A DNA stretch of 26,878 bases, taken from positions 1 to 26,878 of the forward strand of contig JBHLPL010000012.1 of assembly GCA_048939465.1 (NCBI GenBank). The letters run 5' to 3'. Position numbers and translations under genes: made by a program. The notes beneath the pieces are model-generated. The model saw only the letters and a program-made list of their open reading frames with translations. It searched no databases and was not told the DNA's origin. Below are positions 4,678 through 25,653 of the stretch, one piece after another. Source of the stretch: Promethearchaeota archaeon. GTDB taxonomy: Archaea; Asgardarchaeota; Odinarchaeia; Odinarchaeales; JBHLKK01. Position 1 is the stretch's first letter. Each line of letters starts with the position of its first letter.

Positions 4678-4710
4678 GTTTTGATACCCGCCTCACCTGA
4701 GTGATTTTAT

Positions 4711-4963
4711 CGATTTTTCGCAAGAAGATCCGATCTGTGAATGTGGGGACGAATTTCATCGCGTTTAAATATCTTATTGCATTAATATGGTAACAGGCTC
4801 TTGGACCATATGGTTCAGAGTAGGGCTGTCCAGCAATCAGTACTTGTGCAAAGCTGGAAGTTCTGCCCCAAACCTCCCCAGAATTCATAGCTCCGAAAGG
4901 AGACCTATTGACGATACGGAGAGCGAGGGAGGACATCTCTTGCGAAAGCTGGGGACGGTTCAC
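4711..4963 (+). mobile_element. E1: non-autonomous IS200/IS605-derived mini-element (PATE-like), no transposase or TnpB
   Basis: The left end aligns ungapped to E2 (TTTAT|cgattttt-CGCAAGAAGA-hairpin; about 37/51 identical by hand). The last 39 nt (4925-4963) align ungapped to the E2 end (29/39) and finish TCTCTTGC-GAAA-GCTGGGGA-CGGTTCAC. Internal TTTAAATA at 4764. Confidence 0.7.
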
Positions 4964-5189
4964 AAAGATTAAACCTATCAAATGTCAAACCAGGAGGATG
5001 AGGTTCGACTATTTACCTTTGGACTAATACGGGGACAGTGATGAGGAAAGGATGTATCTTATTTAAGCTCCCTTATCTTATCCTTCTTTTGATTTCGTCT
5101 TGCTTTCAGTCTTAACTTAAATAATAGCGACTGATAAAAGGAGAACACTATCCTTAACGGGTGCCTAGCTTACAGCCGGGGAGATCCAA

Positions 5190-6920
5190 TTGAAACTGGA
5201 GGAAATTGCGCGTAGGTATGCTTTGCTTAACGCAGTCAAGTATGGCGGAAAAGCTAGTTTCAAAGCTGTTATGGGCAAGATTATTTCAGAGCAGCCAGAA
5301 TTTAAATCGAAAACAAGAGAGCTTTCTGCTATACTCAAGAAGATTGTAGAGGAAATAAACAAGATTTCTTTCAAAGAGCAAAAGCTACTAGCATCTCAAT
5401 TTGCTATGCCAGAAAAAGAAGAGGAGGCAGAAGATAAGGTTCTCCCAACCTTACCCAACGTTGATCGTGTTGAGACTGTCGTAATGCGATTAGCGCCATA
5501 TCCATCCGGCCCACTACATATCGGAAATGCAAGGATGGTTGTTCTAAATGATGAGTATGTGAAGCGTTATAACGGAAGCCTGCTTTTGGTATTTGATGAT
5601 ACGATCGGCAGTGAAGAGAAAGTTATCCTTCCTGAAGCCTATGATCTCATCTTAGAAGGACTAGATTGGCTGGGAGCCAAATGGCATAAAACTCTTTACA
5701 AGTCGGACCGACTACTCATTTTTTATAAGTGGTGTAGAGAACTCCTGGAAGATGGATTTGCTTATGTGTGTACCTGTGAGCCTTCCAAGTGGCGAGAGCA
5801 ATACAAGCTAACTAAGCGCCCCTGTCCTTGCAGGAGTCTGAGCGTAGAAGAGAATCTTCATCGTTGGGATAGAATGATTGATGGCACGTACGGTGCAGGA
5901 GAGGCTGCTGTTAGGCTAAAAACGGGCATGAAGGTAGATGATCCTGCACTTAGAGATCACGTAATTATGAGGATTTCAGATCGAGTTCATCCAAGAGCAG
6001 GATCGAAGTACCGTGTCTGGCCACTATTAGAGTTCTCTTGGGCGATTGATGACGCACTCTTGGGCATTACTCATATTCTGCGAGGAAAGGACTTAATCAA
6101 GGAGGATAGGGTTGAAAGAATCATCTGGGATCTTTTGGGATTCAAAGATCGTGAGTTCATCCATTATGGAACGATTAGGTTTTCCGATCTTTCCCTCAGT
6201 AAGTCTCGGTCCCGCCGTTTGATTGACAAAGGAGTCTATCGCGGTTGGACTGATCCCCGAACTTGGAGTCTTCAATCACTCCAGAAACGAGGACTCAAGC
6301 CCGAAGCTGTCAGACAAGCAGTCCTGGATCTTGGCCTGAGTTTGACCGATATTGATTACAGTCCAAGCATACTGTACGCTGTCAATCGGAAGATGATCGA
6401 TCCAGTAGCAAACCGACTGTTCTTTGTTGACATTCCGGTGGAGTTGATTGTGGAAGATGGGCCAGACGATGAAGTAATAGCTGCCAACCCCCCCAGACAT
6501 CCAGATTATCCAGATAGGGGAAAGCGACACATTAGCGTAGCCATTGAAAATGGCCGTTTCTCAGTATACATATCGAAAAGCGATGTTGGGAGATTAAGAA
6601 TCGGAGACGTTATTCGATTGAAGGATTTGGCTAATATTAAGATAAGGTCCATCAACGAAGCACGAATCATGACCTCCTATCATAGCAGGACTATCGGTAA
6701 CGCAAGGCAATCGGATGTGAAAAGAATAATTCATTGGGTTCCCACTGATGATAATGTTCCGCTGGAGGTCGTTATGGAAAACGGGGAGATTCTAAAAGGT
6801 CTTGGAGAACCTGAGTGCATCGATCTATCTGAAGGTAGTATCGTTCAATTCGAGAGATATGGTTTTGTGAGGGTAGATCGCCTGAAACCCGTGACAAGGG
6901 TGTATTTTGCTCACCCTTGA
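5190..6920 (+). CDS. gltX: Glutamate--tRNA ligase (archaeal-type, class I), TTG start
   Basis: MRLAPYPSGPLHIGN (HIGH-like), FDDT, THILRGKD, LSKS (KMSKS-like), VQFERYGF; archaeal N-terminal helical domain. Confidence 0.97.
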   Translation: MKLEEIARRYALLNAVKYGGKASFKAVMGKIISEQPEFKSKTRELSAILKKIVEEINKISFKEQKLLASQFAMPEKEEEAEDKVLPTLPNVDRVETVVMRLAPYPSGPLHIGNARMVVLNDEYVKRYNGSLLLVFDDTIGSEEKVILPEAYDLILEGLDWLGAKWHKTLYKSDRLLIFYKWCRELLEDGFAYVCTCEPSKWREQYKLTKRPCPCRSLSVEENLHRWDRMIDGTYGAGEAAVRLKTGMKVDDPALRDHVIMRISDRVHPRAGSKYRVWPLLEFSWAIDDALLGITHILRGKDLIKEDRVERIIWDLLGFKDREFIHYGTIRFSDLSLSKSRSRRLIDKGVYRGWTDPRTWSLQSLQKRGLKPEAVRQAVLDLGLSLTDIDYSPSILYAVNRKMIDPVANRLFFVDIPVELIVEDGPDDEVIAANPPRHPDYPDRGKRHISVAIENGRFSVYISKSDVGRLRIGDVIRLKDLANIKIRSINEARIMTSYHSRTIGNARQSDVKRIIHWVPTDDNVPLEVVMENGEILKGLGEPECIDLSEGSIVQFERYGFVRVDRLKPVTRVYFAHP

Positions 6921-7030
6921 AACTGACATAATCCTCAGAATGGAATGAAGAAAAAGAGAATAGATCGAAAACTATTTTTCTACCTTTCAGACTATACTAT
7001 ACCTATACAACACCTTAACATCTGGTTATT

Positions 7031-7738
7031 ATGTTCAAGGGGTATGGAATGATGTCAGAGCTCGCTGAGTCGAAAGAAAGTAAAGTGTGGAGAATAGAGC
7101 ACGTTCTTCTGCTGTGGGCTATAGTCCTGATAATGATTGTTTCTTTTAGCTTTATTAATTTGTACAGTATCTGGCTCGGGGTAGCTTTGACTGAGTTTGC
7201 TATTCTGCTTGTAACGGTTGTGGTGGCTACAAGATTCTTTGATGCGTCCCACGATGACCTTGGGGTGAAAAGAACCTCTTCTAAATGGATACTTCTGGCA
7301 ATGGTCTCAAGCATCGCGGCTATTGGATTAGGCTACGCTGGTGTTACTATTCAAGTTCTAATTCTGGGATCTCCTCCCGAATCGTACCAACAATATATGG
7401 ACGTACTGGCACCTCGTGATATCGTCTCTCTAACTGCTTGGATCCTGCTGTCGTTTCTAGTTATTGCGCCGTGTGAAGAGATTTTTTCCAGAGGTTTTGT
7501 GCAGAAAGGATTAGAGAATTCCCTGGGAGGGAACTGGGGTTTGATACTTGCATCTGTTTTGTTTGGCGTACTCCATGTAGAACTGTTTCGTATATTCCCG
7601 ACAGTACTTGAGGGACTTGTAATAGGGACTGTTTACCTTAAATCAGGACATAATGTTGTAGCATCAACAATCTCACATGGGTTCCTGAATTCAATGATCT
7701 TTGTTCTGGTGTATTTCACTTACATCCCAATAGTGTAG
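7031..7738 (+). CDS. CPBP family intramembrane metalloprotease (CAAX/Abi-like)
   Basis: Multi-TM protein with PCEEIFSRG (EExxxR), FGVLH and SHGFLN motifs. Confidence 0.9.
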   Translation: MFKGYGMMSELAESKESKVWRIEHVLLLWAIVLIMIVSFSFINLYSIWLGVALTEFAILLVTVVVATRFFDASHDDLGVKRTSSKWILLAMVSSIAAIGLGYAGVTIQVLILGSPPESYQQYMDVLAPRDIVSLTAWILLSFLVIAPCEEIFSRGFVQKGLENSLGGNWGLILASVLFGVLHVELFRIFPTVLEGLVIGTVYLKSGHNVVASTISHGFLNSMIFVLVYFTYIPIV

Positions 7739-7767
7739 TACGTTGCTGGGGAATAAGCGAATGAATC

Positions 7768-8150
7768 CTATTCTTCCTCAATAAGTTCTTTTTCCTTGAA
7801 TTCCTCTCCCCGCAGAGACAGATAGGCCAATAAGAGGATCCCCGTTATGATTGTCGCGGCGTCCAGTGTTGAAAACACCCGAAAGTCCCTAAGACTCCGA
7901 CTCCGAACCACGCCGTATGCCCATTTTTTAAGACTGTATGACCCGATTGACACCGCGATACCGGGCGATCTCCGGATCAAAGACGCGACTCTGGAATAAG
8001 CTAAGGCTTTATAACAGGATCACAACAGACTGCCCAGAGAGCAATAACCTGCGGTCATGGTAAACCTGCGGGCCCCCAGATTACTCCAGATAGAAAAATC
8101 AAGATGCTTAGCAAAATCGCTCCCAAGGGCTCGATTCTGTCCTCAGACAA
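7768..8150 (-). pseudogene. Probable frameshifted small membrane-protein gene, split over track ORFs 8055-8291 and 7768-7980
   Basis: Fragments EPLGAILLSILIFLSG, LKKWAY and ITGILLLAYLSLRGEEF lie in different frames with stops between them. A 9-bp direct repeat (AACCTGCGG at 8046 and 8063) sits at the first break. The pattern resembles the archaeal 'RPLGV...LKKWAW...ILYYL' membrane proteins (from recall). Confidence 0.5.
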
Positions 8151-8335
8151 AACTTCTCTCTCATCATTTGCTCTGACTCTTTCTTGAAGGAGACCCCTAT
8201 TATTCTTTCCAATGAAATGAAGAAGTCTGTTCCAAAATCCCTCTGGCCCGACGATTGTTAGTAGAAAATCTTTTAAACTACTTGCAAGCAATAAAGACCC
8301 GCTTCCAAGTCAATAAAAAGGAGGTAAAAAGCAAC

Positions 8336-10468
8336 TTGATACCCTACGCTGCGTGGCTCTGTTGGGCTATTCCTCTCATTGGCTCGGTCCTTACGCCGGT
8401 ATTTGCCAAAATCAGTCCAAGAGTTAGGGATTACGCGGCAGTTGTCTTTGGAGCTTTAGCCATGATCATGGCAATCTCCATGATACCAGACATTGTGGCC
8501 GGTCAGGTTGTAACGCTCGACGGGATCCCTCATGAAATACCTTATGACTGGGTAGTACCATGGATGCCTACGATAGGACTTAACGTGGGTGTTCTTATAG
8601 ATCCACTCAGTGTCCTGCTTGCAAATGTGGCAGCTGATATCGGGTTTCTTATTCTCCTTTATTCAATAGGATATATGCATGGAGATCCAGACAAGACTAG
8701 ATACTGGTTTTTCATGCAATTCTTTGTTGGCTCCATGGTCTTGCTCGTAATGGCGGATAACTTCCTCTTGATGTTTATAGGTTGGGAGGGTGTAGGACTG
8801 TGTAGTTATGCACTGATTGGTTTCTGGCACAAGAAAACTACACCAAGCCCCGTCCCTGGATATGCATCGGAGGGCGACTATAATGCACACGCCGGACTGA
8901 AAGCATTTATAGTAACCAGGGCCGGCGATATTACTCTCCTGATTGCAATCCTGATCATCTTTGTGACTGCAGGAACTTTCAACTACATTGAGCTCCAGAG
9001 CGATTTTGCTTGGATGAGCATTCTTTCAGGTATGGGCCTTTCCTTAATCGTACCTCTGCTCCTCCTTGGAGGCCCTATAGGAAAATCTGCCCAATTCCCT
9101 CTGCACGTTTGGCTTCCAGAAGCCATGGCTGGTCCGACGACAGTTAGTGCACTGATTCATGCTGCAGCCATGGTTAAGGCTGGTGTCTATCTGGTTGCAA
9201 GGAGCTTACCTATATTCCATGAAGCGTTTATTACTCACGGTTATCCAGAACTCTATACCTTCTTTCAGGTTGTTTCCTGGATCGGAATATTCACTGCATT
9301 TATGGCTGCTACCATGGGCATGGTGGCCAAAGAGATTAAGAAAGTCCTGGCATTTTCAACCATAAGCCAACTCGGATATATGTTCTGCGCACTAGGTATA
9401 GGCGGAATGGCAGTAGAATTCGGAGCTGGATTCACAGCTGGTGTATTCCACCTGGCAGCTCACGCGATTTTCAAAGCTCTCCTGTTCTTGGCAGCCGGTT
9501 GTGTGCTTCACGCCACCGATACCAAAGACATGTTCGAGATGGGGGGTATTAGAAAGGAGATGCCTTGGACTTACCGAACTATGCTTGTGGGCGCTCTATC
9601 GCTCAGTGGAGTGCCCTTCTTGTTTGCTGGTGGTTGGAGCAAAGAAGCCATCCTTGTTGCCGCTTTGGAGACTGATCAGATCTTGCTCTTCGCTGTGGCG
9701 GCGCTCACAGCAGCCATAACAGCCTTTTACAGCCTCCGTATGCTCGGAATAACCTTCTTTGGACCAAAGAGCGATTTTCTAAAGAAAAGAGAGGCTGAAG
9801 GCAAACATGTTCACGAAGCCCCACTCAATATGCTTGTCCCTCTACTGGTACTTGCTGGGTTCACAATATTGATAGGCGTTCTGTCAATACCGGATTTCTT
9901 TGGCTTGTTTGGCTTTGAGGGAGCCTTACATACTTATTTCGGAGCAATACTGGGTCACGGCCCCGCAACACTTACTGCTCCGATCCTGAACCCGAGTGTA
10001 CAGATCGCATTGGGGACAAGTCTCCTAATGCTTGCCATCGGCTTTGCTCCTGCGCTAATCTTATACATCCGAAAAGATGGGAAAACCGCGAAGCCAACCA
10101 TAAAACCGATCTACCAGTTTCTCCGTAACCGGTGGTATATAAATGAGGCCTATCGTCGGGTCTTTGTTCGGGGAGCGGTGAAGCTTGGCAGTGGTCTGTA
10201 CAAATATGTTGAAACAAGAGGCATCGACAGATTTAATTATGCAGTTGCAGGCGCAGCCAAGCGTGTTTCAAACTGGCTTTATAGGTATCCGGAGATGAAA
10301 GGTCTGGAAGGCTTTAATAGAGGAGTTGCTAAAGCCTTCTCATCGTTCGGAAAGAGATTTAGAAGACTACAGACAGGCGTGCTATCCTATAATATGATTG
10401 GTGTATTAGCTGGTATGATTGCCATAGTTTCAATCCTAGTATTGTATTTCCTAGTAATAGCTCCATAA
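8336..10468 (+). CDS. nuoL: NADH-quinone oxidoreductase subunit L / MrpA-like antiporter subunit; start probably TTG 8336 rather than 8255
   Basis: FIGWEGVGLCSYALIGFW, GKSAQFPLHVWLPEAMAGPTTVSALIHAA, AFSTISQLGYM, HAIFKALLFL. TATA-like TTTTAAA at 8271-8277 and SD GGAGGT at 8320-8325 lie inside the track ORF's first codons, which supports the later start. Confidence 0.92.
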   Translation: MIPYAAWLCWAIPLIGSVLTPVFAKISPRVRDYAAVVFGALAMIMAISMIPDIVAGQVVTLDGIPHEIPYDWVVPWMPTIGLNVGVLIDPLSVLLANVAADIGFLILLYSIGYMHGDPDKTRYWFFMQFFVGSMVLLVMADNFLLMFIGWEGVGLCSYALIGFWHKKTTPSPVPGYASEGDYNAHAGLKAFIVTRAGDITLLIAILIIFVTAGTFNYIELQSDFAWMSILSGMGLSLIVPLLLLGGPIGKSAQFPLHVWLPEAMAGPTTVSALIHAAAMVKAGVYLVARSLPIFHEAFITHGYPELYTFFQVVSWIGIFTAFMAATMGMVAKEIKKVLAFSTISQLGYMFCALGIGGMAVEFGAGFTAGVFHLAAHAIFKALLFLAAGCVLHATDTKDMFEMGGIRKEMPWTYRTMLVGALSLSGVPFLFAGGWSKEAILVAALETDQILLFAVAALTAAITAFYSLRMLGITFFGPKSDFLKKREAEGKHVHEAPLNMLVPLLVLAGFTILIGVLSIPDFFGLFGFEGALHTYFGAILGHGPATLTAPILNPSVQIALGTSLLMLAIGFAPALILYIRKDGKTAKPTIKPIYQFLRNRWYINEAYRRVFVRGAVKLGSGLYKYVETRGIDRFNYAVAGAAKRVSNWLYRYPEMKGLEGFNRGVAKAFSSFGKRFRRLQTGVLSYNMIGVLAGMIAIVSILVLYFLVIAP

Positions 10469-10492
10469 AAACTCAACTCGGAGGAAAAATAG

Positions 10493-11992
10493 ATGATAAT
10501 ACCATATGCCCCAATACTGGCGTTATTGCTGCCAACGGTATCCCCTGTAATTATATACCCAGTTGGAAAGAGGTACGGCAAGTTCGCAGAAATAGGATCC
10601 ATAGTCGTTTCCATATTGACAGCAATACTCGTTTTTTCCATGATTCCCGATATAGTTGCCGGATCAACCATTTCCTACTATCCTGGCTACGAGTTTGCTC
10701 CAACACTAGGAATATCGTTCGGTGTTCTTGTTAACGCAGTAAGCTACCCTTTGATGAGCATCATTGCACTGGTATCGTGTTTTGCCACCATCTACAGCTA
10801 TAACTATATGAAGGATGAACCGGGACATGCGGGGTATTATGCCAACTTGTTACTCTTCTTCGGCGGTATGATGGGCGTAGTTCTGGCAACCAATCTCATA
10901 CAGTTTTATATATTCTGGGAATTGATGCTGGTTCCGAGCTGGCTACTCATTGATTTCTGGGGAACACCAGGACAAGGTCCGAAGATTGGATTTAAGTATT
11001 TCATCTTTACACATATTGGAGCCCTATGTATGCTACTCGGCATCTTCGTGCTATTTGCCTTTACGGGAACATTCGACATGGTCGTCCTTGGTTCATTAAT
11101 TGCATCGGCGAGCATACCATTCAATACGATGGCTGCGATTCTGTTCCTATTCATGATCGGTTTTACTGTAAAAATGGCAGCCTTTCCAGTACACACGTGG
11201 TTACCCGATGCACACGGCGAAGCTCCAACGCCCATATCTGCCATGCTGTCTGGCATAATGATAAAACTCGGTGCATTTGCACTGGCCAGAATTGCCCTAA
11301 CTTTCATGGGTAACGTTGTTCTATCAGCTAGGACAATAATCTCAGCCCTTGCGGTCGTAACGATGGTTTGGGGAGGCTTTATGGCCATCGCGCAAACAGA
11401 CATCAAGCGGTTGCTGGCATACTCCAGCGTAAGCCAGATGGGATACATTCTCTTCGGTCTATCAGTCTATTCAGAATTAGGATTAACCGGTGGACTCTTT
11501 CATATTGTTGCTCATGCTCTTGGTAAAGGTGCCCTGTTCATGTGCGCAGGTACTCTTATGCATGAGGTAGGGACAAGAGACATTCGAGAAATGGGTGGAC
11601 TGGCGAGTAAGATGCCAATTACGGCAATAGTATTCCTGATTTCAGCACTTTCCCTAAGCGGTACCCCACCCTTAGCTGGCTTTACATCGGAGTGGCTGAT
11701 CTTCACCGGAGGTCTGGCTCAGATTGCAACCAGTCCCGAAATGCTTTGGATAACTGCAGTAGCTCTAATATCTACAATACTGACTCCCGCTTACTATTTG
11801 TGGACAGTCTGGAGAATCTTCTTTGGAAAAGAACGCAAGAACCAAGATAACGTCCATGAAGCACCTTCAAGCATGTGGGTTCCCATGATTCTGATGGCTG
11901 CATTAACTGTCATTTTTGGAATCTTTCCCAATCTACTACTCAATGTAATCTCGCGAGCAGTTGCTGACATACTGGGTGGCGTGTTCCTCTAG
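10493..11992 (+). CDS. nuoM: NADH-quinone oxidoreductase subunit M / MrpD-like antiporter subunit
   Basis: FYIFWELMLVP, VKMAAFPVHTWLPDAHGEAPTPISAML, LLAYSSVSQMGY, GTPPLAGFTSE; SD GGAGG; 24 nt downstream of nuoL. Confidence 0.9.
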   Translation: MIIPYAPILALLLPTVSPVIIYPVGKRYGKFAEIGSIVVSILTAILVFSMIPDIVAGSTISYYPGYEFAPTLGISFGVLVNAVSYPLMSIIALVSCFATIYSYNYMKDEPGHAGYYANLLLFFGGMMGVVLATNLIQFYIFWELMLVPSWLLIDFWGTPGQGPKIGFKYFIFTHIGALCMLLGIFVLFAFTGTFDMVVLGSLIASASIPFNTMAAILFLFMIGFTVKMAAFPVHTWLPDAHGEAPTPISAMLSGIMIKLGAFALARIALTFMGNVVLSARTIISALAVVTMVWGGFMAIAQTDIKRLLAYSSVSQMGYILFGLSVYSELGLTGGLFHIVAHALGKGALFMCAGTLMHEVGTRDIREMGGLASKMPITAIVFLISALSLSGTPPLAGFTSEWLIFTGGLAQIATSPEMLWITAVALISTILTPAYYLWTVWRIFFGKERKNQDNVHEAPSSMWVPMILMAALTVIFGIFPNLLLNVISRAVADILGGVFL

Positions 11993-12052
11993 CTTCCAGA
12001 TGAATTTCGGACATAAACGTTTGCTGGGTTATCTACCCATTCCTATTTTTAT

Positions 12053-12395
12053 CTATCTTCCGCAAGAAGACTCCGTCAGAGAGGGTGGAGATGAATTCGA
12101 TGTGTTCATGTAATTTTTCGGAAATCAAGTCTTGGGTAAGACACTCAAAAGAGGAAGGGTTCTCAACGGTGTGGGCGTGAAACCCGGCCTGGGAGAGCGG
12201 GTCTTGTGGGTACATCCTGCTTGACAGGGCTGTCCCGTGCCTGTGGCACGTTATGGAGTGAACCAGCCCGAGGGTCTACCTCCTGCGCAGCCGTGGATTC
12301 GGACCACAGAACCCCCTCTGCGAAGCCAAAGTGTCCTCAGACGCAGGAGGCAGAGAGAGGGAGGAGACTCCTTGTGAAGGCTAGGGGTAGTTCAC
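12053..12395 (+). mobile_element. E2: non-autonomous IS200/IS605-derived mini-element
   Basis: TTTAT at 12048-12052, left hairpin CTCCGTCA-GAGA-GGGTGGAG at 12071-12090, right end CTCCTTGT-GAAG-GCTAGGGG-TAGTTCAC at 12368-12395. Interior is GC-rich with several stems and has no convincing ORF. Confidence 0.75.
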
Positions 12396-12411
12396 TGTTC
12401 TTCCGCCTATA
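12220..12411 (+). ncRNA. Candidate omegaRNA-like scaffold plus guide within E2 (boundaries approximate)
   Basis: Hairpins at 12223-12234 and 12236-12250, a 13-bp stem 12275-12287/12342-12354, and internal GTGAAC (12258) complementary to terminal GTTCAC. Confidence 0.4.
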
Positions 12412-12738
12412 TTCCTCTAGAAGACCCTATGAGTAAGGGTGGGAACTGATTGCGTTGTGCTTAAGTATTCTCCTGGATATTTGATTTCGAGGTCTGTGAC
12501 CTTGAAGGCTAAATTCGCATAATTGTTCAAAGAGATGCATCAAAGATCTTGGGAATTCCGTTAAGGACTTCTGTTCTTGCCCGCGCACAAACCTCAGGTA
12601 TCTCGCCCTTGTTAATCATGAACTCCGATGTTTTCCCGTTACCGCTCGTTGATACTCCTCGGGGATAAAAGCAGGAATAGATACATTTTTAGAATAAACC
12701 CGTATATTATTAATTGATAAGATCTTGGAGGACAACCG

Positions 12739-13305
12739 ATGATTAATCCAGGTAAGGACCTAGAGAAGGCAATCGTGGATATTGTTAAAGGTTTGGCCTC
12801 GGTTGTAAAGAAACTGGATGATTCTACTAACCAGCTTACAACAAGAATGAGTGATTTTGAAAAGCGGGTTCTGTCAAGGTTAGAAAAACTCGAGAGTCAA
12901 TTTAGTGGACTGGAAAAGACTAAGGATCTTATCGATGAAATCAGCTTATTGGTACCAGTTCTACAAGTATCCAATCTTTTGAATAATGTAAAGGGAATGG
13001 TACAACCATCTAGACCTCTTACACCAATGAGGAAGGAAATAGTAGCACCTGCCCGAGTTCCAAGACCGGCGCCGACAAAAGACATTGAACCTACTCCCAT
13101 GCCCGCCCAAGAACCTCTGTTTGAAGAGCCAAAAGCGCTTTTTAAGGAAGAGGAATCAGCTCCAAGTTCCCCTTCTTTATCCGATGAGACGGAACCTGAT
13201 GAGAAGGGAGAACCTGAAGTGGTGGTTGGCGAGCGTGTCCCTTCTTACATTAAGAAGAAAGTAAAGCCAAAATCTATATGGGAAGGTATCCGTGACGAAG
13301 AATAA
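12739..13305 (+). CDS. Hypothetical protein: N-terminal coiled coil, Pro-rich/acidic disordered linker, short C-terminal motif
   Basis: Heptad-rich aa 1-90, then PSRPLTP...PARVPRPAPT...EEESAPSSP, ending KPKSIWEGIRDEE. SD GGAGG and AT-rich promoter upstream. Confidence 0.85.
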   Translation: MINPGKDLEKAIVDIVKGLASVVKKLDDSTNQLTTRMSDFEKRVLSRLEKLESQFSGLEKTKDLIDEISLLVPVLQVSNLLNNVKGMVQPSRPLTPMRKEIVAPARVPRPAPTKDIEPTPMPAQEPLFEEPKALFKEEESAPSSPSLSDETEPDEKGEPEVVVGERVPSYIKKKVKPKSIWEGIRDEE

Positions 13306-13326
13306 TTCGGAACGGGTTGAAGGTCT

Positions 13327-13734
13327 TTACTCAAGTTTCTCTAGGACTTCCGTAAGCTGTCTGCTCAGAGATGTTAGCTGAACAAGCCAGGCTGCACTCC
13401 TAGTCTTTTTGAGTAATTTGTCAAGGGTCTCAATCATTTCCTTTGGGGTTCTATTCTTGACTTCCGAAAGAATCGATTGCAGATCTGAATGGGCTTTGTT
13501 CTCGAGTTCTGAGACCTTGCCTATCATGCTTTTCCTTAAGTCCTTGTTATATTTCCCCAGTTGTTCTACCTGCTTTGCCATTGACTTAGTATTCTCATCG
13601 AAACTTTGCTTTAAGTCCTTGAGTGTCTTATTAAGTTCAGTCATGGACTCTATGATGTTATCTGTCCTTGAATAAATGTCATCTAATGCTCTGGTAACAA
13701 ATCTCAACACTTCTCCTGGAACATCTTCACTCAT
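13327..13734 (-). CDS. Hypothetical all-helical coiled-coil protein
   Basis: 135 aa amphipathic heptads, no TM segment; SD GGAGG on the minus strand; 20 nt downstream of 13755-14171. Confidence 0.85.
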   Translation of the reverse strand: MSEDVPGEVLRFVTRALDDIYSRTDNIIESMTELNKTLKDLKQSFDENTKSMAKQVEQLGKYNKDLRKSMIGKVSELENKAHSDLQSILSEVKNRTPKEMIETLDKLLKKTRSAAWLVQLTSLSRQLTEVLEKLE

Positions 13735-13754
13735 TATTTACGCCTCCAGGTTTC

Positions 13755-14171
13755 TTAATTGGTCCTGGCTTTTCGGGCGAGAAGTTTGAGCCCCTCTCTC
13801 ATTTTGTCGAGGTCAATTCCGCTCAGTACACTCTGACTCATTTCATCGATCTTGCCTATGGCTCGATCCAGTCTCTTTATATCAAAAGTATTCTTAATGC
13901 TGTCAATTCCTGCGTTGAGATTCCTAATCAGGAAATTGGTCTGTTCATCAAACCTCTGCGTTTCAGCCCCGATTGCCTCAGTGAGTTGATTAATCATGTT
14001 TCCAAGCTCTTCTGTGTTGCTCTCGAAAGCTTGAGCTAAATCCTCTCTTATGGTCTTCGTAACTTCATCGATGCTTCTGGCAACTTCATCGAGCTTATTC
14101 ATTAGGTTAGAGAACTTCTCTTCTATCTTCTTGCTCAAAACTTTATCACCATATTTAGAGGTGCCGAACAT
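13755..14171 (-). CDS. Hypothetical all-helical coiled-coil protein
   Basis: 138 aa amphipathic heptads, no TM segment; probably co-transcribed with 13327-13734. Confidence 0.85.
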   Translation of the reverse strand: MFGTSKYGDKVLSKKIEEKFSNLMNKLDEVARSIDEVTKTIREDLAQAFESNTEELGNMINQLTEAIGAETQRFDEQTNFLIRNLNAGIDSIKNTFDIKRLDRAIGKIDEMSQSVLSGIDLDKMREGLKLLARKARTN

Positions 14172-14363
14172 ATTTAATAAAAGTATTCATGAACTTACAT
14201 CTTGAGTGCGAATCCATCTTAGAAGTTTGGCAGCAAAAGTCGAGTGCCGTGAGCTATTGTATACGCTCCCTTATCCAGAATCGATATTAATGCATTAGCG
14301 AAGATTGAGCTATCCAAATTTAAATAGCCACGTCACTCAGACTGGACGAAGGGGATAGAGTAG

Positions 14364-14636
14364 ATGGTCATAATTAGGGGAGTAATCAAAAGCATAAGTC
14401 CTCCTAAAACAAAGAGGATTAGTCACCGCAGAGTGTTCGCGTATCTGATCTTTACCATAGAAGATGAACAAGAGAAGCTGTATTCTGTCCTTATACCCGA
14501 TAAGATATTTAGAAAATCAGGCTTTGTCCCAAGAGTTGGACACGAAGTCGAACTTGAAGGGTACAGGAGTGAACCTCGCTATGCTTTGGTCGATTATGAA
14601 GTTAGTAGAGTTAAATGGATCAGGAGAATAGGATGA
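14364..14636 (+). CDS. Small basic single OB-fold protein (RPA/SSB-like topology)
   Basis: Beta-strand pattern VIIRGVIKSI...YLIFTIEDE...YSVLIP...VGHEVELEGY...YEVSRV is typical of OB folds; Lys/Arg rich. Confidence 0.7.
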   Translation: MVIIRGVIKSISPPKTKRISHRRVFAYLIFTIEDEQEKLYSVLIPDKIFRKSGFVPRVGHEVELEGYRSEPRYALVDYEVSRVKWIRRIG

Positions 14637-14638
14637 TT

Positions 14639-14875
14639 CAGGGGTCTTGTGCGAGTAAACTACTCCTCCCTTGCGGAAGGAACTTATGACTGTGCTTGGC
14701 CGCAATTCCTTTTCAGGCTTTGGCTTCATCGCACGTCAAGTCAGGGCAGTTTACGGTGCCCCAGCCCGGTAATCCGCATGTAGCGTCGGGCTTAAGAGTT
14801 TACCTCATCCGTTCCCATTCTCCTTGCAGGTCTTTAACCGTTTCCACATCGGAGAGAGGTGTGCCTTTAGACCTA
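14639..14875 (-). ncRNA. Candidate omegaRNA-like scaffold plus guide within E3 (boundaries approximate)
   Basis: Hairpin GGGCA-CCGTAAAC-TGCCC displays GTAAAC (14754-14749), complementary to terminal GTTTAC. GAAGCCAAAG is shared with E2 at the same distance from the end (72 vs 73 nt). Stem TAGGTCT/AGACCTG. Confidence 0.45.
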
Positions 14876-14957
14876 TTAGCACGTTTGGCACGGGCCTATT
14901 TTAAGACCACTCAGTCCCTCTCCGTCCTCTCGGACGGAGTCTCCTTGAGGTGGCTCA
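14655..14957 (-). mobile_element. E3: non-autonomous IS200/IS605-derived mini-element (left boundary approximate)
   Basis: Minus strand: perfect left hairpin CTCCGTCC-GAGA-GGACGGAG (14939-14920; 24/28 identical to the E2 left core), CTTAAAAT at 14905-14898, right end TTCCTTCC-GCAA-GGGAGGAG-TAGTTTAC (14682-14655). Confidence 0.75.
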
Positions 14958-15142
14958 GACGAATGAAGCTGGTGCCGAAAAATCCTCATATATTAGAAGT
15001 ATTTATGATTCTGTTTTCTGGGTAATCTTTGTTGCGAGTTATATGACGAATACGTTTATATCTGGAGATAAGTACAACCAATATTGTGAAAAGATGAAAA
15101 ATAAACAATGATACTCAAGGATTCATCAATCATCAGCTCCCA

Positions 15143-16054
15143 ATGATTAGAGACAATGGAGGAATGGTTTTGTCCTATGAGCAAATACCGATATTGGTTG
15201 ATCAACTAAGAAATGGGGTAAGAAGACTGCAGGAAACCCTTTTATCCGAACTAGATTTTGGACTGCAGCATTACAGTGAGGAACTAGATCGATGCAAGAC
15301 GAGAATACCTGTTCGCCTCAAAGGATTTGGCGGTATAGACATCTTTGCCAAAATAGTAGAACGGATAGTAGACGAGGAAATAATATCGACTATTGTAGAT
15401 TGTGAAGAAAGAATCTGGAACAACGTGAAGAGTATTCTATCGGGCGCAATAGGCGGTATTAACCAATCTGCCGAAGAGATTTCAGATCACGTTACAGCTC
15501 TTGTCAACCGAATTGAAGCTTCTCCTGAGATTTCCATGTTAAAGAGCAAATTGACTGAAAAAGAAGAGAGAATAACAGAACTCCATCAAGCAATTGAGGA
15601 ACGTAAGATCGAAGTGGAGACTTTGAAGGCGAAAGTAGCAGAGCTAGGGTCAGAACTTCACGCCAAGGAAAATGCGCTTGAAGAAATGAGAGATGAGCTA
15701 CCCAGAGATATCAAGAAACTTACAAGTACTGTCGAGAGCCAAAGAAATCAGATAGAGGTCCAAGAAGCTAATATACGTGAACTCTCTGAGAGAGCCATGG
15801 AAATGGAAAGAGAAATACACATCACGGGAGAACGCTGGAATCGTTTAGTAAACGTCGTTACGGATGATACACGCTATGGTTGGTTCTTCAAACTAACCGA
15901 TCAACATGGATGGACGGAATTGAAAAGGCTGATAGTTGGGCATCCTACAGTTTACGTTTTGGAACGCTGGGTCAGACCCTTTGAAGACAAGGGACTGGTA
16001 GAGCTCAAAGAAGAAGATGGAAAAGTAATGGTTAAGGCTTTAGAATTTGAGTAA
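15143..16054 (+). CDS. Hypothetical protein: helical N-terminus, long coiled coil, probable C-terminal winged helix
   Basis: Coiled coil at about aa 125-230 (LKSKLTEKEERITELHQAIEERKIEVETLKAKV...); C-terminal LERWVRPFEDKGLVELKEEDGKVMV looks like a wHTH recognition helix plus wing. Confidence 0.85.
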   Translation: MIRDNGGMVLSYEQIPILVDQLRNGVRRLQETLLSELDFGLQHYSEELDRCKTRIPVRLKGFGGIDIFAKIVERIVDEEIISTIVDCEERIWNNVKSILSGAIGGINQSAEEISDHVTALVNRIEASPEISMLKSKLTEKEERITELHQAIEERKIEVETLKAKVAELGSELHAKENALEEMRDELPRDIKKLTSTVESQRNQIEVQEANIRELSERAMEMEREIHITGERWNRLVNVVTDDTRYGWFFKLTDQHGWTELKRLIVGHPTVYVLERWVRPFEDKGLVELKEEDGKVMVKALEFE

Positions 16055-16174
16055 TCATCAGGTAGTCTTGTCAATTAATTTTGGAACGGTTGCTTCTCCG
16101 ACCGTTTAGATTTCACGGGCAAATCTTATTAATGAGGGTCTTTCTTAAAACCCTCGTATTGTTTTGTTCCGGGG

Positions 16175-17116: not shown

Positions 17117-17118
17117 AG

Positions 17119-18051: not shown

Positions 18052-18119
18052 AATTCTCTCCCTTAGTTTCTGGAATTAATATGACCGTCGAACCTGGACG
18101 ACTGATTTCTATACCGGCA

Positions 18120-20024: not shown

Positions 20025-20142
20025 CTAGAGCGTAATTACCATTATCTGCCCATGCAATATTTATAAGATTTGTCGAAAGAACCAGTCGAAACGATAAACA
20101 TTAAAAGTCCGTTGCGCATAGTCAGTTTTGGAGGGCAAAATA

Positions 20143-20694: not shown

Positions 20695-20920
20695 ATACAC
20701 TCTTTCTCTATTTCTTTAGCTTCTCTATTTCACGCAGACCCAAGCAATAGGATTTCTTCTCATTTCTGGATTTATATTGCCGAAAGCTTTAATGATAATT
20801 CAATCACTGAGAGTATCGCAACCTAAAGTCGAATGATACTAAAAAAGCTTAAATTACCATTCGCAATAAGTATATATTGGGTACTTGAGCTGAAACATAT
20901 GTGACTAACTATTAGCCGTA

Positions 20921-22408
20921 TTGAGAAGACCGCAAAAGAGGTATTCACTGTTGTTAGACGGACTCCAGAAGAGCAGTTTGGAGAAAACGGGAATTGATTT
21001 GCTAGACAATATGTTAGAAGGTGGTCTTCCCTCTTCAACTGCGATAGTGGTCGTAGGGGAGTCAGGAGTCGGAAAGTCTATAATGTGTCAGAAATTCCTT
21101 CATGAGGGACTGAAGAACGGTGATGGGGCGATATACGTAGCTTTGAGTGAATCCTCAAATACGATCGCCTCCACGATGAAACGTATGGGATGGGATATAA
21201 CCAATTATCTGGAAAATGAGCAGTTGATGTTTATCGAAAGTTACCCCTCGAAAACTCTCTTTGTTGAAGGCAATTACTTTGACCCAAGAAATCTCTCTCT
21301 CCTAAACCTGAAGATTGCTTCCGCATTTAGCTATATGAGAAAGTATGACAAAGTGCGTCTTGTGATAGATTCATTGTCCGATCTAATTGAGTATGACAGA
21401 GAAGGTAGATATATTGGGAATTTCCTCGATGAACTCATAGCAAATATTCATTTGGACAATGTCTCTTGTCTATGCACACTAACGCCCGAAGTCCAACCGG
21501 AGGAAGTGAGAGAACAAGTCCAAAGCGGCTTCGACGGTGAGATTGAGTTTAGGTTCACTGAGGTTGCAGGAAGCTACCAAAGGCAGGTTAGAGTAAAGAG
21601 AGTGAGAGATGAATATCGTAATTCAAAGTGGACAAGCTTTGCATTGACAAACAATGAGGGAATGGTTCCTCTGTCGGCGACGGGAGAAGGAAGCGAGCCA
21701 GAAATACTTGCTCTTGCGCCGCAAATATACGATGTTTACATAATCGACAGAAACGGCTATTGCTTATTTAATGCGAAAACCAAAGATGCTGAATATGAAG
21801 TGGACGTAGTCTCTGCTTTTTTGACTGCTGTATCAACCTTTGCAAAGCAGATGCTACCTAGCGAAGGCGAATTATCAGGAATCCGGAAGGGAAATCTACA
21901 GATACTGTGCGAATGGGGACAAAATATCTGTGTTACCGTAGTATGTACAAACGATACTGCAGAAGATGAAGTAAGATACAAGATGAGAATTCTCGCAGAT
22001 ACGTTTGAAGTGAGATTTAATCATTTACTTGAGTATTGGGACGGAGACCTCTCTGTGTTCAAACCAGTGGAGCGATTGGTAAGAAGATACTTCGGCTCAC
22101 ACCTCTCCCGGATAGATGATGGTGATGCTACTGAACCTCGAACACAACTATACTCCATCGATGATCTCGGCTCAAAAGCATATTGGGATTACTACAGGGA
22201 TTCGAAGGGCTTTGGACTATTTAGGAGAAAAAACCAAATTCCAATTAATGAAGTTGACAAGCTAATTGACTTAATATCTGCAGAGAGGCTGAGTGTTGAT
22301 GAATTGGAGAGAGCCATTGAAAAGGGTAGAATAAAATTAACAAAAGAACTAGCTATGAGGGCATTGATGAATCTGCATAGGAGAGAGATCATTTATTTGA
22401 TATCTTAA
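20921..22408 (+). CDS. KaiC/RAD55-like RecA-fold ATPase fused to a longin-type domain and a probable C-terminal winged helix
   Basis: KTGIDLLDNMLEGGLP, Walker A GESGVGKS, Walker B LVIDS. Then IYDVYIIDRNGYCLF...VSAFLTAVSTFAKQ...FEVRF...WDGDLSVF, the typical Asgard longin pattern. Start uncertain (TTG). Confidence 0.9.
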   Translation: MRRPQKRYSLLLDGLQKSSLEKTGIDLLDNMLEGGLPSSTAIVVVGESGVGKSIMCQKFLHEGLKNGDGAIYVALSESSNTIASTMKRMGWDITNYLENEQLMFIESYPSKTLFVEGNYFDPRNLSLLNLKIASAFSYMRKYDKVRLVIDSLSDLIEYDREGRYIGNFLDELIANIHLDNVSCLCTLTPEVQPEEVREQVQSGFDGEIEFRFTEVAGSYQRQVRVKRVRDEYRNSKWTSFALTNNEGMVPLSATGEGSEPEILALAPQIYDVYIIDRNGYCLFNAKTKDAEYEVDVVSAFLTAVSTFAKQMLPSEGELSGIRKGNLQILCEWGQNICVTVVCTNDTAEDEVRYKMRILADTFEVRFNHLLEYWDGDLSVFKPVERLVRRYFGSHLSRIDDGDATEPRTQLYSIDDLGSKAYWDYYRDSKGFGLFRRKNQIPINEVDKLIDLISAERLSVDELERAIEKGRIKLTKELAMRALMNLHRREIIYLIS

Positions 22409-22428
22409 TTTTGTAATCTGAAAAATAG

Positions 22429-23448
22429 GTGGGGTCGATGGCAAAAAGTATCAGAAACACCATTCTAAAGTTGAAAGTCATGGGAAAGGCTCTCTTCTCT
22501 GACATAAGATCCTTAGATAAAGGAACCCGTCAGCTGAGCGAGAGATTACTGACACAGATCGCCATAAAGGAAGGCTATCCGAGCCTGCTTATGAGCCCAC
22601 TAACACTCGAACAGATTATCGAACAGATGAGATACAAGAATACAGACCTTGCTGCTGATTTTATGAAGGTCCTAGTTGAAATTGGTGTAATTCGAGAGAA
22701 TGGTGGAGTATATGTATGGAAAGGAAAGAAGATTAAGATAGGAAAACATGAGCGAAGACTGCAGAAAATAGGGTTAGCTTTTGCCAGAATCTCGGAGGTA
22801 TTCTCCACATATATGCCATATGCATTACGAGGACACGGAAAAACACGCGAGTTTACTAGAGAGCTGCTACTTGCTATTTGGGATAGTTTATATTCAAGTG
22901 AATTCTACAAATTTGCAAGAGGACTTGTGATCGACTGGGCAAGACTCCCTAAGTATCAAACGATCCTTGACATAGGGTGTGGTACTGGCTGGAGCACAAT
23001 TAACATAATACAAAAGACCAATGCTGAAAAGGTATTTGCAGTAGATCGTTCACAGAAAGCAATTGATATTGCGAAAGAGAACATCAACATCACAGGATAC
23101 GATGACAGAGTTGAGTTCATCGTTTGTAATATTTCGAAGAAGCCTCCTACTGAAAAAGAGGTAGACGGTGCATTCTCTTCATTGTTTTTCCACTGGCTCA
23201 ATCGAGACGAGATTGTCCAGGCCCTTAAAAATATTAGAGCCTCATTGAAGCCTGGAGCTATTTTCTGTGGATTACAGCCCTTAAACAAGAGAACTGATAG
23301 AATGGCTTATTTTGATGTTTTGTTTCGTGCCTCCATTGACTTTAAAGGGTATCCTCAGAGGGATTTCTTTATTGAAGCCTTCAAAAATTCCAATTTCGAA
23401 GATCTGAGTATATGGTCGAACGGAATTTTTTCATGCAAGGCAATCTAA
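22429..23448 (+). CDS. Class I SAM-dependent methyltransferase with N-terminal helical/wHTH domain; start possibly ATG 22438
   Basis: ILDIGCGTG, FAVDRS, FFHW, LKPGA; 20 nt downstream of the KaiC-longin gene. Confidence 0.9.
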   Translation: MGSMAKSIRNTILKLKVMGKALFSDIRSLDKGTRQLSERLLTQIAIKEGYPSLLMSPLTLEQIIEQMRYKNTDLAADFMKVLVEIGVIRENGGVYVWKGKKIKIGKHERRLQKIGLAFARISEVFSTYMPYALRGHGKTREFTRELLLAIWDSLYSSEFYKFARGLVIDWARLPKYQTILDIGCGTGWSTINIIQKTNAEKVFAVDRSQKAIDIAKENINITGYDDRVEFIVCNISKKPPTEKEVDGAFSSLFFHWLNRDEIVQALKNIRASLKPGAIFCGLQPLNKRTDRMAYFDVLFRASIDFKGYPQRDFFIEAFKNSNFEDLSIWSNGIFSCKAI

Positions 23449-24749
23449 GAGACCTCCTCACCAACGTTGGAAATTATATGTCTAGTTCTTGCAGAAGGGG
23501 TTTCCTTTATCTTTTCTGTAAATCGGACCTTTAAATCCGCCCCTTTGAAGAGCTCTCCACAAATCCTCTCAACTTTTTCGGCAGTTCTATCGCTGAAATC
23601 CTTACCTTTTACTAAATACACTTCTATTTTATCTCTTTGTGGTTGTATTACTTGATAGTTCTCGAGCTGCAGGATGTCTCCTAATTCTCCAATAACTATT
23701 TGTGGATAAACCAGCTCCCCGGCAGGGAGTCTGATAATATCCTCAGCTCTCCCCTCTATAACATCAATTAAAGGAAATGTTCTGCCACAGCTGCATTCGT
23801 TGCCACCAGCTCTGACGATGTCCCGTGTATCATATCTGATTAGTGGCATCGCCTCTCTCATCAATGGCGTCAGAATAAGCCGCCCTCTCTCACCTTCAGC
23901 TACCGGTTCATTATTTTTGTCTACCACTTCCATGATAGCTGTGTCGATATTCGTATGAAGTCCCATATGTTCAGAACATTCATATCCAAAAACATTAATC
24001 TCGGTTATTCCGTATGCATCAAAGACTTCAGCATTCAATGATTCTTCAATTCCTCTTCTTATTTTATCATTAAGAATCTCAGAGCCTGTCACTACCGTTC
24101 TAAGATGCGGGAATTCCAAATCATGGTCGGCCATGTACTGTCCTATTGAATATGCCACTGATGGATATACACTTAGTAATGTGGGATCGTATTTCAGAAG
24201 CTCTTCAACTATTTCGGGCAAGGGCTTTTTTATTGAAATCATCTTTACTTTGGCAAGGAGTTTGACGATTCCGCCAAAGAGCGTTTTTACCAAGGTCGCT
24301 CCAATAAAAGGCCCAATCATGAGCAATTGAGCTACCCTATCTTTCAAAGTTCTAAGACCTGCTGCTTCTGACACTCTTGAAGCTGTTGCTGCAACAATCG
24401 CTATGTCGTTTTCTGTGAAAAAGATCTCTACGGGCTCCCCAGTACTTCCTGAAGTGGTTACTCTGATTAATTTCGTATCTTTGACTTCTTTTGAAATCAT
24501 ATTGTTATACCTTAACGTACTTTTCTTGGTCAGAGGCAGTTTTCGTAAATCCTCTTTCGTGTTTATGTCATCTGGCTTGAGGCCAAGTGAGTCGAATAAT
24601 CGATGATAGTATTCAGTGTTTTCGTAGGCTATATGAACCTCTTTTTTCAATTCCTTCAACTGCAGTTTCTCGAGTTCATCCATTTTCTTGTACGGGTTTT
24701 TTCTCAACTTGCGCCTTGCTCTAAGAAGTTTGTATAACATGCCCCCCAC
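23445..24749 (-). CDS. Phenylacetate-CoA ligase-family (PaaK-like) adenylate-forming enzyme
   Basis: TTSGSTGEP P-loop, DAYGITE, RYDTRD, CSCGRTFP, EGRAED. The substrate cannot be inferred. Confidence 0.9.
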   Translation of the reverse strand: MGGMLYKLLRARRKLRKNPYKKMDELEKLQLKELKKEVHIAYENTEYYHRLFDSLGLKPDDINTKEDLRKLPLTKKSTLRYNNMISKEVKDTKLIRVTTSGSTGEPVEIFFTENDIAIVAATASRVSEAAGLRTLKDRVAQLLMIGPFIGATLVKTLFGGIVKLLAKVKMISIKKPLPEIVEELLKYDPTLLSVYPSVAYSIGQYMADHDLEFPHLRTVVTGSEILNDKIRRGIEESLNAEVFDAYGITEINVFGYECSEHMGLHTNIDTAIMEVVDKNNEPVAEGERGRLILTPLMREAMPLIRYDTRDIVRAGGNECSCGRTFPLIDVIEGRAEDIIRLPAGELVYPQIVIGELGDILQLENYQVIQPQRDKIEVYLVKGKDFSDRTAEKVERICGELFKGADLKVRFTEKIKETPSARTRHIISNVGEEVS

Positions 24750-24877
24750 CTTCTTCTCTTTTCACCTATTATGTTTTCTAGTGATATAAAAGCTCTAGTA
24801 CGATTTGTTGTATTCTCTGCTTAACTAAGCAAAGGGTTTTTTATAAAAACAAAGACATACTTTCTATCTGAATTCGC

Positions 24878-25350
24878 TTAGGCACAGGCAGCTTCTCCAA
24901 TTCTTGAGATCATGTGCCATCTCCTAGCAGAGGGAGTTTCTGGCATCTTCTCTGTGAAGTCAATATTCACATTTGTGCCCTTAAAAACGTCTCTGCGAAA
25001 TTTCTCAACTTTCTTACCGCCCCCATCAATGAAATATCTACTTCACTGTCCTTCTCTATGGTGCCCATTTGAGGCTTTACGCCTCGATAATTCCTAAGCC
25101 CCTTAATTTCGCCCCACTCACCAGTTGAAGTTCGTGGATGGATGAAACTTCCATCGGGGGCTTAATCGCTTCCTCAACTCGCCCCCCCATGATATCAATT
25201 GAAGGAAAGGTTCTTCCGCAGTTGCATTCATTTCCACCGATTCTGACAATGACGTATGTCAGATCTGATTAACTGCATTGCCTCTCTCGAAGACAGTGTT
25301 AAAATAAGTTTTCTTCTCCCCCCTTCAGATATTGGCCTATGTTAAATATC
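24878..25350 (-). pseudogene. Degraded 3' fragment of a paralogue of the adjacent PaaK-like gene
   Basis: Minus-strand fragments KLILTLSSREAMQLIR, VRIGGNECNCGRTFPSIDIMGGRVEE, PDGSFIHP and KKVEKF...FKGTNVNIDFTEKMPETPSARRWHMISRIGE* are colinear with aa ~295-434 of 23445-24749, with frameshifts and a stop. Confidence 0.85.
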
Positions 25351-25653
25351 GGCTGGAGATCCCGTCCGTAGGGGTGGGGAGGAAAGCCGACCTCCCGCAA
25401 CATTTGAGTTTTTAAATCCTGATGAAGACTAAATATGGGTGGAGCATCAGGAAAGACAATCGTCGTTGCTGTTAAATCGGCTGTGGTGCGGGATCATTCT
25501 CAAGGTCAAGGTCTCAACCTCTTTTCCCAGTCTACCAGGCCCTGAGTCTCTGTAAACAGGCTCTTTCGTCCGGGTGATGAGGTTTTGAGTGGTGCGGTGC
25601 ACTATACTCGGCCTCTGATGGAAAGCTCCCTGCGATAGCTGGGAGTAGTTTAC
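25351..25653 (+). mobile_element. E4: non-autonomous IS200/IS605-derived mini-element (left boundary approximate) abutting the PaaK pseudogene
   Basis: Left hairpin TCCCGTCC-GTAG-GGGTGGGG at 25360-25379, TTTTTAAAT at 25409-25417, right end CTCCCTGC-GATA-GCTGGGAG-TAGTTTAC at 25626-25653. Confidence 0.72.

Follow-up and report, generated by a model that had tools for sequence, protein, structure and literature searches.

What are the four intergenic segments, here called E1 to E4, that recur with similar hairpin ends along a single contig of an Odinarchaeales archaeon? The contig, JBHLPL010000012.1 of the Promethearchaeota assembly GCA_048939465.1, was analyzed over its whole length of 26,878 nucleotides (nt) and is our window (contig C10 of assembly G000, which comprises 1.96 Mb in 152 contigs, has a G+C content of 43% and is 91% complete). 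Two congeneric genomes, G001 and G002, each 78–82% complete, served for comparison. We find that E1–E4 are very probably non-autonomous, protein-less derivatives of tnpB-only (IS1341-like) insertion sequences (ISs) of the IS200/IS605 family, that is, palindrome-associated transposable elements (PATEs). The original prediction, made from the letters of the window alone, had proposed an IS200/IS605-derived PATE family and had listed three outcomes that would speak against it, namely no further genomic copies, no tnpA- or tnpB-bearing element with matching ends, and vertical inheritance of the segments at orthologous loci. All three were examined and none occurred.

The ends of E1–E4 follow one plan. 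Direct reading and alignment bear out, in each segment, the right-end module that had been described from the letters, in which two 8-nt stem arms with T-G wobbles enclose a 4-nt loop and are followed by YRGTTYAC. The T.T mismatch noted at stem position 6 of E1, E2 and E4 is present as well, and this position (pair 173:182) is unpaired in 12 of 12 E1-type sequences, never forming a standard pair. The left-end hairpins are likewise related, with 7–8 of 8 pairs in E2, E3 and E4 and, as had been noticed, some decay in E1; a conserved leader of ~19 nt (..CGCAAGAAGA or ..CCTCAAGGAGA) stands ahead of them. Chance resemblance is excluded by nhmmer searches against subfamily profiles, in which E1, E2, E3 and E4 gave E-values of 1e-43, 1e-97, 1e-89 and 7e-93, respectively. 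In its complete form, a copy consists of ~19 nt, a top-strand hairpin, a TATA-like box ~15 nt farther on, an omega-RNA scaffold region and the right-end hairpin with TAGTTYAC. The features that define PATEs are all present: lengths of 253–343 nt, hairpins in direct orientation near both termini, no terminal inverted repeats and no duplication of the target.

These four segments belong to a family dispersed throughout the genome. A strict right-end motif scan of the assembly returned 39 sites, mostly with CTCC..GGAG-type stems whose arms covary, and the pairing of left with right ends delimited elements of ~223, 300, 350 and 315 nt, which on clustering form four subfamilies, A–D. Subfamily profile searches found 104 loci, of which 60 are full-length (15 in A, 18 in B, 23 in C and 4 in D), 25 are partial and 19 are shorter than 60 nt. 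E1 and E2 are members of C, E3 of B and E4 of D, a subfamily whose 5′ half resembles B and whose 3′ half is distinct. The whole-assembly scan recommended in the original prediction therefore did uncover further copies, and the part of that prediction that envisaged a genome-wide family stands; its REP/REPIN-like label does not, as discussed below. Copies are ~75% identical to one another and occur genome-wide at one locus per 19 kb, so that the window, with five loci, is ~2.7-fold enriched. The fifth locus is a decayed left-end remnant that starts 3 nt past the terminal TTCAC of E2. About 19 copies are solo units of 47 nt, comprising a 19-nt left leader, one hairpin and TAGTTYAC (for example, C73:16332–16378, C5 near 3078–3117 on the minus strand and C105:997–1043), and are probably products of deletions between left and right hairpins of nearly identical sequence.

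What lies between the ends ties the mini-elements to tnpB transposons. The interiors had been called divergent and non-coding, but alignments to tnpB elements show that they are remnants of such elements and not anonymous DNA. On this evidence, the interior of a mini-element joins the promoter region of tnpB to the final 100–220 nt of a tnpB element, which correspond to the putative omega-RNA region. Similarity to TnpB is limited to a C-terminal remnant of 20–40 codons, and the retained 3′ portion starts just past the RuvC-III motif of TnpB, the region in which omega-RNAs are encoded. For example, the 3′ 170 nt of E1 align to the 3′ ends of congener tnpB elements, and its last 185 nt are 76–79% identical to sequence directly downstream of tnpB at three loci (G001:C76, G002:C94 and G002:C180). 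At the other end, 33 of 52 copies carry a TTTAAATA-like box, compared with 6% in shuffled sequence; in 27 of these copies it lies at a single fixed position, ~15 nt past the hairpin. The same box precedes the tnpB start codon in tnpB elements. Judged by these alignments, the mini-elements originated by internal deletion of tnpB elements.

Partner elements that carry tnpA or tnpB between matching ends, for which the original prediction had advised a search, exist both in this genome (on C2, C70/C55 and C105; Table 1) and in its congeners. The assembly has one Y1 transposase gene (C105, PF01797, E 5e-37) and four above-cut-off matches to the TnpB zinc-ribbon domain; tblastn identified only three intact tnpB genes, one in each of these partners, plus fragments. 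In the C2 element, the tnpB stop codon lies 41 nt ahead of the end ...CAGTTCAC, and the last 96 nt match subfamily A. Its TnpB aligns over the full length with ISDra2 TnpB (E 1e-60), and its three RuvC acidic residues align with those of its best match, a related designed nuclease. G001 and G002 each have 6–8 tnpB loci, where profile scans show complete A-, B- and C-type elements of 1.24–1.31 kb; tnpA was not found in these two genomes at their level of completeness (78–82%). Two peculiarities of C105 are also worth recording. The unit at 997–1043, directly ahead of tnpA, is either the element's own left end or a separate solo copy that served as an insertion target. The TnpB encoded at C105:1557–2837 reads IIVGDLEV in place of the RuvC-II glutamate present in the other two TnpBs (FENL, IEDL), and its reading frame traverses the right-end hairpin, with the stop codon inside TAGTTCAC.

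Comparison with the congeners reveals the mini-elements as insertions with exact boundaries. At the E1 locus, alignment to G002 stops after window position 4710 and picks up again at 4969, with 5 nt between; the empty site reads TTTTAT|AATCG.., compared with TTTTAT|E1|AAAGA.. here, and G001 has an element at this site. At the E3 locus, both congeners have 39–41 nt in place of 345 nt here, and the joint ..TTTGT|TCCCACAG.. corresponds to ..TTCGT|E3|TCGCACAAG.. in the window. In both cases the left flank joins the right flank directly, with no target duplication. Thus, the test by empty sites that had been proposed for this family contradicts vertical inheritance of E1 and E3, which are precisely absent from G002 and from G001 and G002, respectively. 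Homology of the E2 locus to G001 and G002 ends exactly at 12052, directly past TTTAT, and synteny of the E4 locus with G001 ends at 25336, 5 nt ahead of the element; clean empty sites for these two copies were not found in the congeners, where the right side is rearranged at E2 and synteny breaks at E4. Across copies, element similarity starts straight after a T-rich pentamer (TTCAT, TTTAT and TTTAC dominate) and ends at GTTCAC or GTTTAC. The left boundary, 18–19 nt from the hairpin foot, is confirmed by the empty sites. Insertion therefore occurs 3′ of a T-rich, TTYAT-like pentamer without target duplication.

The family resembles IS608 of Helicobacter pylori in these respects. IS608 has imperfect hairpins at both ends on one strand, its left boundary lies 18–19 nt 5′ of the hairpin foot and its right boundary a few nt 3′ of the other hairpin, and it inserts 3′ of a short motif without duplication. 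Unlike in IS608, the motif for cleavage of the right end here (TTYAC) is similar to that of the target, and tandem insertions behind right ends are a consequence, as in the remnant at 12399 after E2 and the solo copy ahead of the C105 tnpA. The motif that serves ISDra2 both as target and as transposon-associated motif (TAM) is TTGAT, compared with the TTYAT-like sequence predicted for both roles here. As a separate observation, the right side of the E2 locus in both congeners holds a gene for a 463-residue Clp1-family P-loop kinase (PF16575), of which codons 3–28 only persist in the window (12669–12746, within 12396–12752), with no other copy found in the assembly; a deletion of ~1.3 kb adjoins E2 and the decayed left-end remnant.

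The retained 3′ region has the hallmarks of a structured RNA. The hexamer at the terminus complements one in the interior (GTGAAC/GTTCAC in subfamily C; GTAAAC/GTTTAC in B and D), and compensated variants of this putative pseudoknot occur inside subfamilies (GCGAAC/GTTCGC and GTAGGC/GTCTAC). For B and D, this internal hexamer lies in a hairpin loop, and five of the six pairs in the stem of that hairpin have compensatory changes. For counts of pairing, structures were specified partly by hand or by constraints, because RNAalifold gave poor or competing structures for whole elements and for a mixed subfamily C alignment, and the sequences compared are mutually related. Counted in this way, 88.9% of cells are paired in the pseudoknotted structure of 18 B copies, compared with 41–48% when the structure is slid along the alignment, and 18 cells show double changes, compared with 8.3 in shuffles, none of 500 of which reaches 18. 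Nine E1-type mini-elements aligned with three tnpB-linked 3′ ends gave 82.7% paired cells and 16 double-change cells, a number again matched by none of 500 shuffles. Many pairs alternate G-U with G-C or A-U, a pattern that makes sense only on this strand. The aligned copies show that a predicted strand-specific fold, including the pseudoknot, has been conserved in the mini-elements. An alternative pseudoknot partner in subfamily B, ATAAAC at alignment columns 177–182, fits worse overall than the hairpin-loop GTAAAC at columns 226–234; in one B copy (C139b), the compensatory change sits at ATAAAC. The ISDra2 omega-RNA also has a pseudoknot, in which positions −5 to −3 pair with bases at approximately −104 (Nakagawa et al. 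2023, PMC10097598). As in ISDra2, the scaffold here overlaps the 3′ end of tnpB and stops at the right end, and its last bases pair ~100–140 nt upstream; unlike in ISDra2, the RNA is encoded without the protein, and the scaffold sequences are unrelated.

Parts of this architecture extend beyond the genus. In a sample of 201 genomes from the phylum, mini-elements of types B and C were found at full length in the genus only. The segment spanning E3 positions 86–233 recurs contiguously, 74–79% identical, at loci without tnpB in another family of the phylum; position 86 is the predicted transcription start. The closest TnpB relatives bear the titles Candidatus Hodarchaeota (83%; the same place as the tnpB match G001:C3), Sifarchaeum, Borrarchaeum and Promethearchaeota, followed by Methanoperedens and others. 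Taken together, the closest relatives of TnpB and TnpA come from Sifarchaeum, Borrarchaeum and Odinarchaeia, which fits the Asgard assignment. The right ends of the TnpB relatives keep the hairpin and TAGTTCAC with different, covarying stems, and this end architecture is therefore a widespread archaeal type. Within subfamily B, the 5′ block of the RNA is nearly invariant (AAAGGCACACCT ... GTGGAAACGGTT; window 14873–14829, E3 positions 86–130). This block matches two 12-mers inside the C70 tnpB coding region, ~470 nt upstream of the right end, which flank a 7-bp hairpin that is shortened in the mini-elements.

How might protein-less elements of this kind move and persist? By analogy with IS608 and ISDra2, a Y1 (HUH) TnpA supplied in trans would move them as single-stranded circles, by peel and paste. 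Their retained promoter would transcribe an omega-RNA whose guide is the 3′ flank, and the few TnpB nucleases could take up this RNA in trans and cleave the joint left empty at the donor site, which consists of the TAM and the flank, a use proposed for PATE-encoded RNAs by Meers et al. (2023, PMC10055086). The element would subsequently be restored by recombination with a sister copy, in the way shown for the retention of full tnpB elements. We consider the chain from promoter through omega-RNA and TnpB in trans to donor-joint cleavage and restoration somewhat more probable than its negation. More broadly, and as a tentative proposal to which we give rather less than even credence, the mini-elements may be kept by selection as self-promoted, trans-acting guide-RNA cassettes, with ~3 TnpBs serving ~60 omega-RNA genes, each guarding its own site, and the architecture may have spread as a lineage of its own across Asgard families, independently of a linked nuclease gene. 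If so, such dispersed-guide cassettes would represent a natural stage between single transposon-encoded guides and CRISPR-like arrays.

Several observations weigh against this account. The promoter, the transcript and its loading by TnpB are deduced from sequence. The only TnpA in the assembly (C105:1150–1554) reads DKDYFHM, a Y-F-H arrangement in which Tyr replaces the first His of the HUH motif; D-H-u-H is found in ISDra2 TnpA and in 104 of 120 TnpA homologues, and Y-u-H in four others. The C105 protein retains the catalytic Tyr (KKYIENQ), and its sequence suggests that it may be a weakened or inactive transposase. A cognate tnpB for subfamilies C and D was not found in the 91%-complete assembly, and for D the search gave just a weak match, in which the last 33 nt align downstream of one tnpB in G001. 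In E1, a 3-nt deletion has removed the pseudoknot partner and part of the left-end hairpin is lost, and this copy therefore looks as if it is decaying. Single-sequence folding z-scores are unremarkable for E2 (−0.8), E3 (−1.3) and E4 (+0.5), and only E1 stands out (−3.6). Finally, no excision joint skipping E1, E2 or E3 was found in contigs or reads of four DNA runs covering positions 4400–15400, the contigs being blind to rare excision; with copies only ~75% identical to one another, any current activity is therefore conjectural. E1 and E2 lie within metagenome contigs of other samples, and the sole extra depth is a repeat-family signal over E3.

Much the same points favor a rival explanation, according to which the mini-elements are inert deletion relics that TnpA spread in the past, with the tnpB tail spared by chance and without a functional omega-RNA. 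The age of the copies, the missing hexamer of E1, the altered HUH motif, the lack of excision variants in the metagenome contigs and the weak z-scores of three of the four copies would all be expected of relics, and PATEs of Haloquadratum have been explained by repeat-mediated core deletion alone (PMC3119063). Nevertheless, we judge this explanation unlikely. Pairing should have decayed in neutral relics that are 75% identical, whereas compensatory changes keep the helices and the pseudoknot paired among diverged tnpB-less copies. Moreover, the TATA-like box keeps a fixed position, and in another family of the phylum, loci without tnpB preserve the block that begins at the predicted RNA start.

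Could the conserved fold instead reflect omega-RNA genes that the host has domesticated, for example, to guide TnpB to regulatory targets elsewhere? An excess of ~60 guide cassettes over ~3 tnpB genes would suit such a role, but the 16-nt flanks that would act as guides have no second exact match in the genome, and when up to two mismatches are allowed, each guide has about one match, as expected by chance, and the contexts listed show no preference for a TAM. The presence and absence of copies varies between congeners, as expected of mobile DNA, and the RuvC acidic residues of TnpB are intact. We therefore regard domestication as very improbable. A REP/REPIN system mobilized by a domesticated RAYT transposase is harder still to credit. 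Both systems have hairpin repeats that are dispersed and rely on a Y1 HUH enzyme, ~19 of the intergenic copies here are a single 47-nt hairpin unit, and one database homologue of TnpA is labeled RayT. However, the only Y1 transposase lies within an IS, adjoining tnpB, and each copy is a single directional unit whose left end differs from its right end and whose interior derives from tnpB. The PATE label is preferred to REP/REPIN because there are no RAYT and no inverted doublets. Least credible of all is the view that the host inherited these segments vertically, as non-coding RNA genes or regulatory structures of its own; it would fit the conserved fold and its lack of a known Rfam family but not the exact-boundary empty sites at E1 and E3, the 104 dispersed copies or the identity of their ends with those of tnpB elements.

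The assignment of E1–E4 as PATEs places them beside two described systems. In the haloarchaeon Haloquadratum walsbyi, PATEs include 52-bp terminal-only versions explained by deletion between near-identical hairpins (Dyall-Smith et al. 2011, PMC3119063), and these resemble the 47-nt solo copies here. The two families share a transposase-less length, near-terminal IS605-type palindromes, the absence of inverted terminal repeats and target duplications, and heterogeneous groups that far outnumber intact transposons, with some copies retaining the C-terminal region of tnpB (PMC3119063). In contrast, the present family comes from an Asgard (Hodarchaeota-labeled) genus, its sequences differ, and covariation supports an omega-RNA fold and pseudoknot that were not interpretable in 2011. 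In Geobacillus stearothermophilus, PATEs often encode omega-RNAs for which TnpB encoded elsewhere would act in trans, and one tnpA mobilizes ~50 elements that lack it (Meers et al. 2023, PMC10055086). Those elements are likewise protein-less, with IS605-family ends and an omega-RNA region, but they are bacterial, and small-RNA data show omega-RNA expression from several of the transposons, whereas here the omega-RNAs are predicted from DNA sequence. The ratio of mini-elements to tnpB genes, ~60 to 3, is much above that in G. stearothermophilus.

All defining features of PATEs are present and the idea of omega-RNAs from PATEs acting in trans has already been published (PMC10055086); we therefore regard the family as a well-supported further case of a known kind of element. 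What sets it apart is the high ratio of mini-elements to tnpB genes and the clear covariation evidence for retained guide-RNA scaffolds. There are several implications. First, an explanation is available for ~100 intergenic segments that would otherwise lack annotation and that make up ~1% of a small Asgard genome, and these need not be misread as novel host RNAs or regulatory elements. Second, the exact boundaries, the target/TAM motif and the candidate guides for several Asgard TnpB lineages could be tested as compact editors. Third, the genome offers a natural test case for omega-RNA function in trans at a large excess over the nuclease. Finally, among the ISs of archaea the IS200/IS605 family is the most common, and most Asgard genomes contain it; a survey that counted protein-coding IS copies found a mean of 8.5 per Asgard genome and did not profile gene-less derivatives (PMC13343696), and surveys of this design would miss most of the mini-element family.

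Table 1. Mini-elements of the window, their parts and the tnpA- or tnpB-bearing partners elsewhere in the assembly (window positions unless a contig is named).
Feature	Position	Strand	Remarks
E1	4711–4963	+	253-nt mini-element, subfamily C, short variant
E1 left-end hairpin	4729–4748	+	decayed, 6/8 pairs
E1 TTTAAATA box	4765–4772	+	
E1 right-end hairpin	4936–4955	+	
E1 terminal CGGTTCAC	4956–4963	+	
E2	12053–12395	+	343-nt mini-element, subfamily C, long variant
E2 left-end hairpin	12071–12090	+	
E2 right-end hairpin	12368–12387	+	
E2 internal hexamer GTGAAC	12258–12263	+	pseudoknot, pairs with terminal GTTCAC
E2 terminal hexamer GTTCAC	12390–12395	+	
Left-end remnant of a second C-type element	12399–12501	+	decayed; nhmmer, subfamily C positions 2–96, E 2e-5
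E3	14958–14655	−	304-nt mini-element, subfamily B
E3 left-end hairpin	14939–14920	−	
E3 TATA-like CTTAAAATA		−	~15 nt downstream of left-end hairpin
E3 right-end hairpin	14682–14663	−	
E3 hairpin-loop hexamer GTAAAC	14754–14749	−	pseudoknot, pairs with terminal GTTTAC
E3 terminal hexamer GTTTAC	14660–14655	−	
E4	~25341–25653	+	~313-nt mini-element, subfamily D
E4 left-end hairpin	25360–25379	+	
E4 right-end hairpin	25626–25645	+	
E4 hairpin-loop hexamer GTAAAC	25552–25557	+	pseudoknot, pairs with terminal GTTTAC
E4 terminal hexamer GTTTAC	25648–25653	+	
tnpB-only element	C2:25977–27281		1.3 kb; left end of the family after TTTAT; TTTAAAT box
tnpB element with B-type ends	split over C70 and C55		~1.25 kb; contigs overlap by 77 nt
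tnpA + tnpB	C105		between left leader with hairpin (997–1043) and right end (2817–2845)

An Rfam scan of the entire window gave no family match at E ≤ 1, a tRNA scan found none, and a scan for sigma-70 promoters and terminators around E1 was uninformative, the host being an archaeon. At positions 7738–8210, one metagenome run (X7) has a contig in which 30 other letters replace 471 nt, which looks like a strain-level indel unrelated to the mini-elements. The neighbors of E1–E4 are ordinary genes, for example, E1 is flanked by genes for a Ras-family GTPase and a Glu/Gln-tRNA synthetase, and E2 is preceded by one for an Mrp/Nuo antiporter subunit; the elements are therefore intergenic. The Ras-family small GTPase gene (PF00071, E 1e-56), at 4153–4677 directly upstream of E1, is typical of Asgard archaea and fits the taxonomy.

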